Source: Eledone cirrhosa
Lineage: Eukaryota
Assembly: GCA_964016885.1 (NCBI GenBank)
Contig: OZ024740.1
Coordinates: 148,428,001-148,492,000, forward strand
Length of the DNA: 64,000 bases
Reading direction: 5' to 3'
Shown here: positions 40,718-40,920 of the stretch, piece after piece
Layout of the letters: every line of letters begins with the position of its first letter
How positions within the stretch are numbered: position 1 is the first letter of the stretch
The notes under the pieces: generated by a model
The model's database searches: none
Told to the model about the DNA's origin: nothing
The model's input: the letters and a program-made list of their open reading frames with translations, nothing else
Position numbers and translations under genes: made by a program

Positions 40718-40920
40718 TAACAAAGGTATTGTGGTAAGGAACCAGATGGACCATAACGCACCAGAGTACTCAATATTTAGGGTAGTAGAGTGGGAAATAG
40801 GGAAAAGTATGACCCCGACGGCAGAGCTCAAGCCGTTTCGACGGTTATTTCTAGACTAAATTTAGTCCAGAAATAGCCGTCGAAACGGCTTGAGCTCTGC
40901 CGTCGGGGTCATACTTTTTC
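40718..40920 (-). mobile_element. Family F fold-back insert
   Basis: Tail plus a near-perfect hairpin with ~58-bp arms at 40802-40920. Confidence 0.75.

Follow-up and report, generated by a model that had tools for sequence, protein, structure and literature searches.

A short hairpin of repeat family F lies in a (TA)n run of the window (by which we mean the whole stretch of 64,000 nucleotides analysed here), and the question that it raises is what determines the point at which such a sequence turns back on itself. The first-pass annotation had proposed that nascent cDNA snaps back at stem II of a hammerhead ribozyme, primes its own second strand and so deletes the catalytic half of the ribozyme. 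The two arms of the focal hairpin are 96.6% identical, the inverted repeat spans 40803-40918 (centre at 40860.5), and the DNA fold of this region has a z of -22.5, none of 200 shuffles being equally stable. Its parts and the other hairpin pairs in the window are collected in Table 1. The A at 40864, which is the 5' edge of the breakpoint pile described below, is the putative transcription start of F; in the tail-carrying arm the inferred +1 is 40857, and the 5' end of that arm lies 5 nt upstream of it. C17 of the hammerhead is 40904, with cleavage predicted after this base.

Table 1. Parts of the focal family F hairpin and other head-to-head pairs or long copies in the window (window positions).
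Feature	Position	Strand	Remarks
F arm carrying the tail	40719..40862	sense = minus strand	96% alignment to natural long copies
F tail	40719..40800	-	~80 nt between two 3' end points; site 1 near 40800, site 2 = 40719
F arm lacking the tail	40859..40920	+	stops at site 1, where the tail begins
Head-to-head junction	40859..40862		AATT common to both arms, no loop (4-nt overlap)
Initiator-like TTTAGT (presumed motif)	40861..40866	+	within 3' strand of stem II
Hammerhead stem II, 3' strand	40864..40881	+	partner strand missing here, present in long copies
Hammerhead 3' half	40882..40908	+	GAAA (40882-85), stem III, GUC triplet, stem I 3' strand GGGG
(TA)n target, left flank	40570..40718
(TA)n target, right flank	40921..40944
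F pair	10148..10356		ends 0 and +1, insert of 9 nt
F pair	24878..25074		tail-less arm to -20, tail arm to ~+35
F pair	26955..27104		turns at TCTAGA palindrome near +2; internal deletion in tail arm
F pair	29032..29217		tail arm +1, tail-less arm +14, overlap 1 nt
F pair	47201..47386		tail arm +17, tail-less arm +2
F pair	49393..49576		blunt; tail-less arm exactly at inferred start, tail arm +18
Family C pair	35362..35516		turns in stem II; atypical of C
Long family C copy	28701..29016	+	TATAAAT box, start region, intact minimal hammerhead (CUGAUGA near 28958)
Family A pair	6515..6713		tail-less arm ends +3, retains CAGAAGA, stem II and GAAA; tail arm begins in GAAA
Family A pair	17034..17291		tail arm ends +5; tail-less arm extends to -47
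Family B2 head-to-head pair adjoining the focal hairpin	40942..41247		turns at 41109/41110

Penelope-like elements (PLEs) are known to target (TA)n, to carry hammerheads and to occur with an inverted 5' copy and a tail on one side, and family F looks like a PLE resembling the Hydra clade. The F unit (~3 kb) contains reverse transcriptase (RT) motifs, DKT, RWR, a CxCX5C linker and a C-terminal endonuclease-like region (L012/L241). The same copies encode HSDKTGN (DKG changed to DKT) and LRWRTF (RWR, one conservative change from RWK), and their tail region, as in full-length copies, continues into the ORF. Read by eye, the frames of the frameshifted copy L241 give an LYRDDGL RT motif, then VIY..YIG and later R/E/N-like residues; CNCPDRSTC corresponds to the CxCX5C linker, and CNLCSEE and ACKH to CxxC and CxH. 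No cysteine pair of the CCHH motif was seen by eye in L241, and Pfam returned neither an RT nor a GIY-YIG match on the F frames. In the passages of Craig et al. (2021; PMC8557442) drawn on here, the Hydra clade is described with a C-terminal endonuclease, DKT, an RWK-like motif, CxCX5C, CxxC with CxH, a hammerhead, (TA)n and a length of ~3 kb, all as in F, and PLEs at large are said there to have an inverted copy truncated at its 5' end, as well as a tail at one end, again as in F. The F tail differs in measuring ~80 nt and not 30-40, and the F core differs in being mostly U3-A8 with a stem II of 56 nt. The outer ends of F abut (TA)3+ in 216 of 235 cases (background 8%), the 3' ends are bimodal (+58..63 and +140/141), and L176 has the textbook PLE form, a 2.6 kb sense arm with the tail plus a 200-nt inverted tail-less arm. 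Twenty-five F pairs were present in 1.2 Mb of blocks, which extrapolates, if the blocks are typical, to ~60,000 head-to-head pairs in the genome of 3.0 Gb. F does not look like a non-LTR retrozyme: in place of tandem non-coding monomers, each with a full hammerhead, it forms scattered pairs of truncated copies, and it has a parent that codes for protein. Beyond F, 204 close inverted-repeat matches, among them 28 clusters of at least two, were found in 1.26 Mb of blocks plus the window. Many of the clusters share the tail and tail-less architecture in (TA)n, and the genome holds many PLE-like families.

To judge from its sequence, F carries a genuine type I hammerhead. The identification of the F sense arm as the 3' half of a PLE hammerhead (GAAA, stem III, GUC, GGGG) was confirmed, and the longer F copies with a 5' core half that had been suggested as a check do exist; they contain the stem I 5' strand, the core heptamer (UUGANAA, or CUGAGGA in the single copy L308), a 56-nt stem II and then GAAA. 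We aligned 20 of the 37 long F copies identified. The 3-8 pair is U3-A8 in 17 of them and C3-G8 in one (one mismatch, one gap), N7 varies among A, C, G and T, and 93.3% of the helix cells are paired, a value reached by 1 of 500 shuffles and to be compared with 32-48% in slid controls. Two-sided change occurs in four helix pairs (the 20 copies represent few independent lineages). Stem II by itself is 93% paired, with three such pairs. The hammerhead is not the minimum-energy fold of L308 (z 0.34). No hammerhead family was among the best 150 of 348 Rfam matches; these were microRNA-like, on hairpins and TA repeats, and all under the gathering score. The U3-A8 variant is already known in PLEs, according to the part of PMC4209133 cited here. 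Only two F arms and no C arm start at the predicted ribozyme cut. A complex F array, L107 (G000:C2:211682760-211685839), has three junctions in which the body, ~300 nt into the ORF, is joined to GGGGTC exactly at the predicted cut; these may record cleaved or circular RNA, and they are the sole hint of self-cleavage. Loop III of F has a palindromic GAGCUC (window 40890-40898), conserved across subfamilies, that fits dimeric hammerhead folding. Minimal cores with U3-A8 were also seen in families G1 and G2, and the core of family A is regularly CAGAAGA (U4 to A), not a private mutation (window 6571-6577, minus strand; L176:1850-1860).

In order to locate the ends of the arms, we have mapped them on natural long copies, with references picked by hand. 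Coordinates in F are counted from the A of TTTAGT, which is position 0 (called +1) and precedes GAAA by 18 nt; the F core starts at -45. The sample consisted of the window, 120 blocks of 10 kb (20 of them adjoining the window), the top matches of tail-only queries, which provide copies free of selection on 5' structure, and copies in the flanks. Duplicates, arms of <85% identity and arms at a block edge were excluded, and 30 matches of the focal query were left out of the counts because they are biased to long arms. The arms retained were 229 of 290 for F, 114 of 135 for C and 57 of 65 for A, the counts of A resting on incidental copies (57 arms, 9 pairs). Internal deletions were at times misread as short arms.

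The F arm ends (n=229) are strongly concentrated, with a sharp boundary on the 5' side and a gradual fall-off towards 3': 118 are at -3..+12, 13 at -10..-4, 6 at -59..-11, 19 further upstream and 73 downstream. That breakpoints would be non-random in F was borne out: 118 of 197 arm ends fall within a 15-nt window, and a uniform spread is rejected (p 2e-55). When only paired ends are considered (n=176), 130 lie in the 3' strand of stem II, 10 in the loop and 6 in the 5' strand, and the 5' core half is retained by just 4 of the 88 F pairs. Both arms of all seven F copies originally named do lack this half, the furthest end being at -20 against a core start at -45. Of the F hairpins said to invert at stem II, two need qualification: at 24882 one arm stops within stem III and its partner within the stem II 5' strand, and the copy at 26958 has an internal deletion. 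A small set of F copies (L241/L012, L024, L016, L014, L108 and L019, mostly from the long-biased set) has 5' ends between -29 and -36, where the TATA-like box and the foot of stem II lie. The 5' edge is also seen in contigs from sequencing runs of one sample: the coverage of a natural long F copy drops from 4.1M to 0.28M (~15-fold) across the edge base, and loose contig ends pile exactly on this base (45 and 56 contigs).

The sharp stem II peak that had been predicted for F, C and A alike was found in F; in C and A the ends pile 5' of the core. In C, 64 of 105 arm ends fall in 15 nt and one in the 40 nt upstream, and in A 21 of 43 are in the pile and three upstream. The paired C ends (n=96) are most frequent in the stem I 5' strand (41); stem II with its loop accounts for 13 and the core for 11, with 9 upstream and 22 downstream. 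CUGAUGA is whole in at least one arm of 34 of the 48 C pairs, and in both arms of 21. The C copy at 35440 does turn in stem II as described, but it is not representative of its family. Likewise, the A copy at 6511 has the described inversion, but one of its arms retains CAGAAGA, stem II and GAAA whole; the A edge is 5 nt before CAGAAGA, and six of nine A pairs keep the 5' half of the core. The distance from edge to core is -45 in F, +5/6 in A and C, about +42 to +44 in E, G1 and G2, +64 in B2 and +122 in f17, i.e., the hot spot is inside stem II in F only and 5 to 122 nt 5' of the core in the seven other families. The edge of E and G2 is ~62 nt before GAAA (small samples of 20 and 21 arms), f21 showed no edge, and the ends of family B are spread over several places. 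The B2 pair next to the focal hairpin turns 5 nt below its initiator-like A, ~60 nt 5' of an intact CUGAUGA, and this distance from an intact core makes it a control within the window against a stem II rule. Unpaired arms end in the same zone (-5..+18 in 19 of 47 for F, 15 of 26 for C and 16 of 38 for A), and therefore the hot spot is a point of 5' truncation and not of folding. A fixed ruler of 60 nt from site 1 was also tried; it fitted F, C and A and failed in E, G1, G2, B2 and f17.

The sequence around the edge provides a way to glimpse at its meaning. In eight families the 5' edge coincides with an initiator-like A, and in F, C, E, G2 and B2 a TATA-like box is located ~30 nt above it (G1 has a near-match; A and f17 have the initiator only). 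The putative start of A is, as in F, the A of a TTTAGT. Such an arrangement would suit a Pol II core promoter. In F, C, E and G2 the box is 28-33 nt above the data-defined edge, with a background of 2-7% each; the pattern was chosen post hoc on these four families in an AT-rich genome, and at the data-defined edge it misses the box in two of four F references. For B2, G1, f17 and f21 the pattern was fixed before the test, and the out-of-sample queries started at the suspected edge, so that ends 3' of the edge cannot show. In B2, 18 of 29 arms end at -4..0 on TCACT, with TATATAA at -32 and the core 64 nt downstream; in G1, 11 of 29 arms end on TCAGAT, with CATAAAA at -31; and the f17 edge is on TCATAT, without a TATA-like box. 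The C edge is 30 nt below TATAAAT (the A of ACAGTC, considered as the C start, was rejected, being 4 nt off the mapped edge). TTTAGT is conserved in 19 of the 20 aligned long F copies, while the surrounding stem II varies. The sole near-full-length F copy starts at -36 and not at +1; it keeps the TATA-like box, which fits a source copy but speaks against a start at +1. A further point against is the promoter of D. virilis Penelope, which is internal and TATA-less (PMC2377424).

The relation between the two arms is equally informative. The tail is on one arm only in 84 of the 88 F pairs, and on exactly one arm in 45 of 49 unselected F pairs and 25 of 26 unselected C pairs. In 52 of 84 F pairs it is the arm without the tail that extends further 5' (tail arm in 25, equal in 7), as it does in 29 of the 57 cleanest pairs (tail arm in 24, equal in 4), and an arm that reaches further is not a copy of the tail-primed strand. 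Both arms come from one source: subfamily marks agree between them in 46 of 63 pairs (shuffled mean 17, maximum 28), and N7 matches in nine of nine long head-to-head pairs. Each arm is tied to the target by its 3' end, which is the polarity of target priming, one per site. Tail-arm ends of F form a second pile at site 1 (15 of 40, p 0.001), which was not found in C (4 of 27, p 0.66). In some copies of f17 (L260, L271, L272) and B2 (L315, L324, L326, L328) the first 5-8 nt are directly repeated at the 5' edge, which fits re-priming or template jumping at the RNA end.

On balance, each of these pairs is probably the product of two cDNAs, one started at either end of the tail, that ran off the RNA at its 5' end (the likely transcription start) and were joined end to end. 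The two would be primed from opposite (TA)n target strands, one at each end of the tail, and both would be templated by RNA from one source, most likely a single molecule. Synthesis would cover only ~60 and ~140 nt before reaching the RNA 5' end, and over such short distances most products are expected to be short; the run-off ends would then be joined blunt, by overlaps of 1-4 nt or with short inserts. The pile of F tail-arm ends at site 1 would arise where one cDNA runs into the starting point of its partner. That the edge falls within the hammerhead would follow from the position of the start, within stem II in F and within the 5' strand of stem I in A and C. An F RNA born at +1 would never hold the catalytic 5' half, and no deletion of it would be needed; long copies would derive from read-through RNA or from priming at a downstream repeat. 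A broader reading, which we hold only tentatively, is that double priming by a dimer on one capped RNA is the normal PLE route and that the stem II start of F acts as a transcription-start switch of the ribozyme. A protein dimer would nick both (TA)n strands and prime one cDNA per tail end, and double priming followed by joining of the run-off ends would in a single step give rise to the inverted pseudo-LTR, to a tail on one side only and to a junction that is palindromic. With a start inside stem II, promoter-born RNA could not self-cleave and read-through RNA could. In support of the run-off model, the passages of PMC11167929 cited here describe a purified PLE protein that nicks both target strands, extends them and initiates at two internal positions, one on each side of the tail.

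The main rival is a fold-back at the RNA end aided by terminal transferase, in which one cDNA runs off the RNA 5' end and folds back (with untemplated bases or a host polymerase), the second arm copies the first, and the endonuclease later trims the tail. It would account for the common source of the arms and for the inserts in 18 of 88 F junctions, it has a counterpart in the snap-back of R2 after full-length cDNA (PMC11371274), and tail formation via endonuclease resolution is suggested in a passage of PMC8557442. The end positions of the two arms are also weakly correlated over all families (rho 0.21, p 0.013). We nevertheless regard this fold-back as unlikely, because the first strand would have to lose its tail in an additional step and because junctions with the geometry of a snap-back, whichever arm came first, are no more frequent than expected by chance (F 17 of 65 against 19.7 +/- 3.7, C 11 of 34 against 10.1 +/- 2.7). 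The 52 clean insert-free F junctions include 19 with loops of <3 nt and 26 that are blunt. A microhomology excess on a subset of junctions would speak for it, and here the result depends on the method: an earlier, stricter and cruder caller gave an excess (F n=27, p 0.004; C n=9, p 0.002), but it classed most junctions as inserts and its excess concerns the remainder, while with the mismatch-tolerant caller, which we trust more, mean microhomology equals the shuffled null (F 0.82 against 0.75, p 0.32; C 0.85 against 0.67, p 0.17).

Snap-back and self-priming at stem II itself, with removal of the catalytic half, appears far less probable. The concentration of paired F ends in the 3' strand of stem II, the rarity of pairs with the 5' core half and the reality of stem II as a paired helix are all in its favour; however, the cDNA would have to enter the 5' strand of stem II, where just 6 of 176 ends are found, the hot spot is elsewhere in C, A, E, G1, G2, B2 and f17, where it tracks an initiator-like A often ~30 nt below a TATA-like box, and unpaired arms stop at the same place. 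The geometry expected of a tail-first snap-back (a loop plus pairing) was seen in 5 of 84 F pairs, 2 of 47 C pairs and 8 of 146 pairs over five families, with 1 nt of pairing, and no fit with at least two paired bases was found among these 146; the focal junction is an AATT overlap with no loop. This part of the first-pass annotation is not supported, and the class of mechanism is not new either, self-priming (PMC3846280) and R2 cDNA snap-back (PMC11371274) being already in print. A stall of the RT at a protein-bound or folded RNA element, and not at the RNA 5' end, would explain why ends are position-specific on both arms despite starts 80 nt apart, and why in F, A and C the ends fall inside the ribozyme. 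A helix is generally expected to halt an RT at its 3' foot; yet by then the enzyme has traversed stem III and all of the stem II 3' strand in F, and the entire ribozyme in A and C, and the edge motifs of families with an edge 40-120 nt from the ribozyme are left unexplained, all of which makes a stall improbable. Finally, long palindromes might have lost their central part, either once inserted or during assembly, or a few palindromic masters might have been multiplied, as internal deletions in some arms and the recurrence of the AATT junction (13 and 9 contigs) could suggest. This, too, is very doubtful: 77 distinct junction types among 88 F pairs exclude a single palindromic master, the edge is base-specific and common to unpaired arms, arm length varies by family, and head-to-head joints at 40864-40873 are present in contigs from three sequencing runs of one sample (perhaps the assembly's own).

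The proposed double priming has a relative in L1 twin priming, in which two target 3' ends reportedly prime cDNAs on the RNA that are joined into an inversion (a process said to go back to Ostertag and Kazazian in 2001). In L1, twin priming is reportedly occasional, with a random second site and no overlap, whereas in the F model it would be the normal route, with fixed sites and overlapping arms. An experimental parallel is Anolis Poseidon in vitro (Frangieh et al., 2024, PMC11167929), in which two start sites bound the tail, both strands are cut and extended, the target is AT-rich and uncleaved RNA is the main substrate (compare the near absence here of arms starting at the cleavage site). 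Poseidon belongs to a different clade, and inverted arms and cDNA ends are outside the passages of that paper that we cite. Like the F pairs, the Penelope of Adineta vaga has head-to-head pLTRs, junction palindromes and an optional tail, and its pLTR carries a TATA and an initiator-like TCACT, as at the edges described here (cited passages of PMC3846280). Arkhipova et al. (2013) inferred self-priming from the palindromes at inverted PLE junctions in the same passages; their model has self-priming on an antisense template, while here there is no excess pairing and the junction is at a sense-strand start motif. The origin of tandem and inverted PLE structures is called undefined in PMC8557442, and in its passages cited here junctions are neither mapped nor tied to a promoter, unlike in this work. 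The hammerheads of PLEs and non-LTR retrozymes resemble that of F in being type I in pLTRs, with U3-A8 and a palindromic loop 3, and in occurring as opposite-strand motif pairs 100-700 bp apart, as here (cited parts of PMC4209133 and bioRxiv 10.64898/2026.07.22.740005); F differs from retrozymes by its coding parent and by lacking tandem monomers cut at the ribozyme site, except in L107. In the literature covered, mainly open-access main texts, we found no paper linking PLE junctions to the start site, stem II or double priming.

If true, the run-off model would explain the long-puzzling inverted ends of PLEs, and it would join the 2024 in vitro result (PMC11167929, as far as its cited passages go) to genomic structure and speak against self-priming as the main route. 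The start-site model also suggests why an internal ribozyme need not destroy its own template. PLE start sites could then be deduced from genome sequence through their junction piles, and the tens of thousands of pairs in many families make junction statistics possible.

Some further elements were observed on the way. A second PLE-like element at L241:5067-6911 (minus strand) has an uninterrupted frame of 614 aa with a weak RVT_1 match (E 8e-5) and a GIY-YIG-like end, and its clade differs from that of F. A short YGAGTRCTY-like motif was noticed by eye inside the tails of unrelated families, namely F (40762-40776), C (35395-35410), A, B2, f14 and f17, and is a candidate binding site of the PLE protein. 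The TA run that holds the focal F copy lies beside large young repeats (window 36348-40571), which recur at 1-356, 27433-27687 and 55483-56258, with 628-nt copies that are 97-98% identical and a 325-nt inverted pair, and which probably represent another transposon family.
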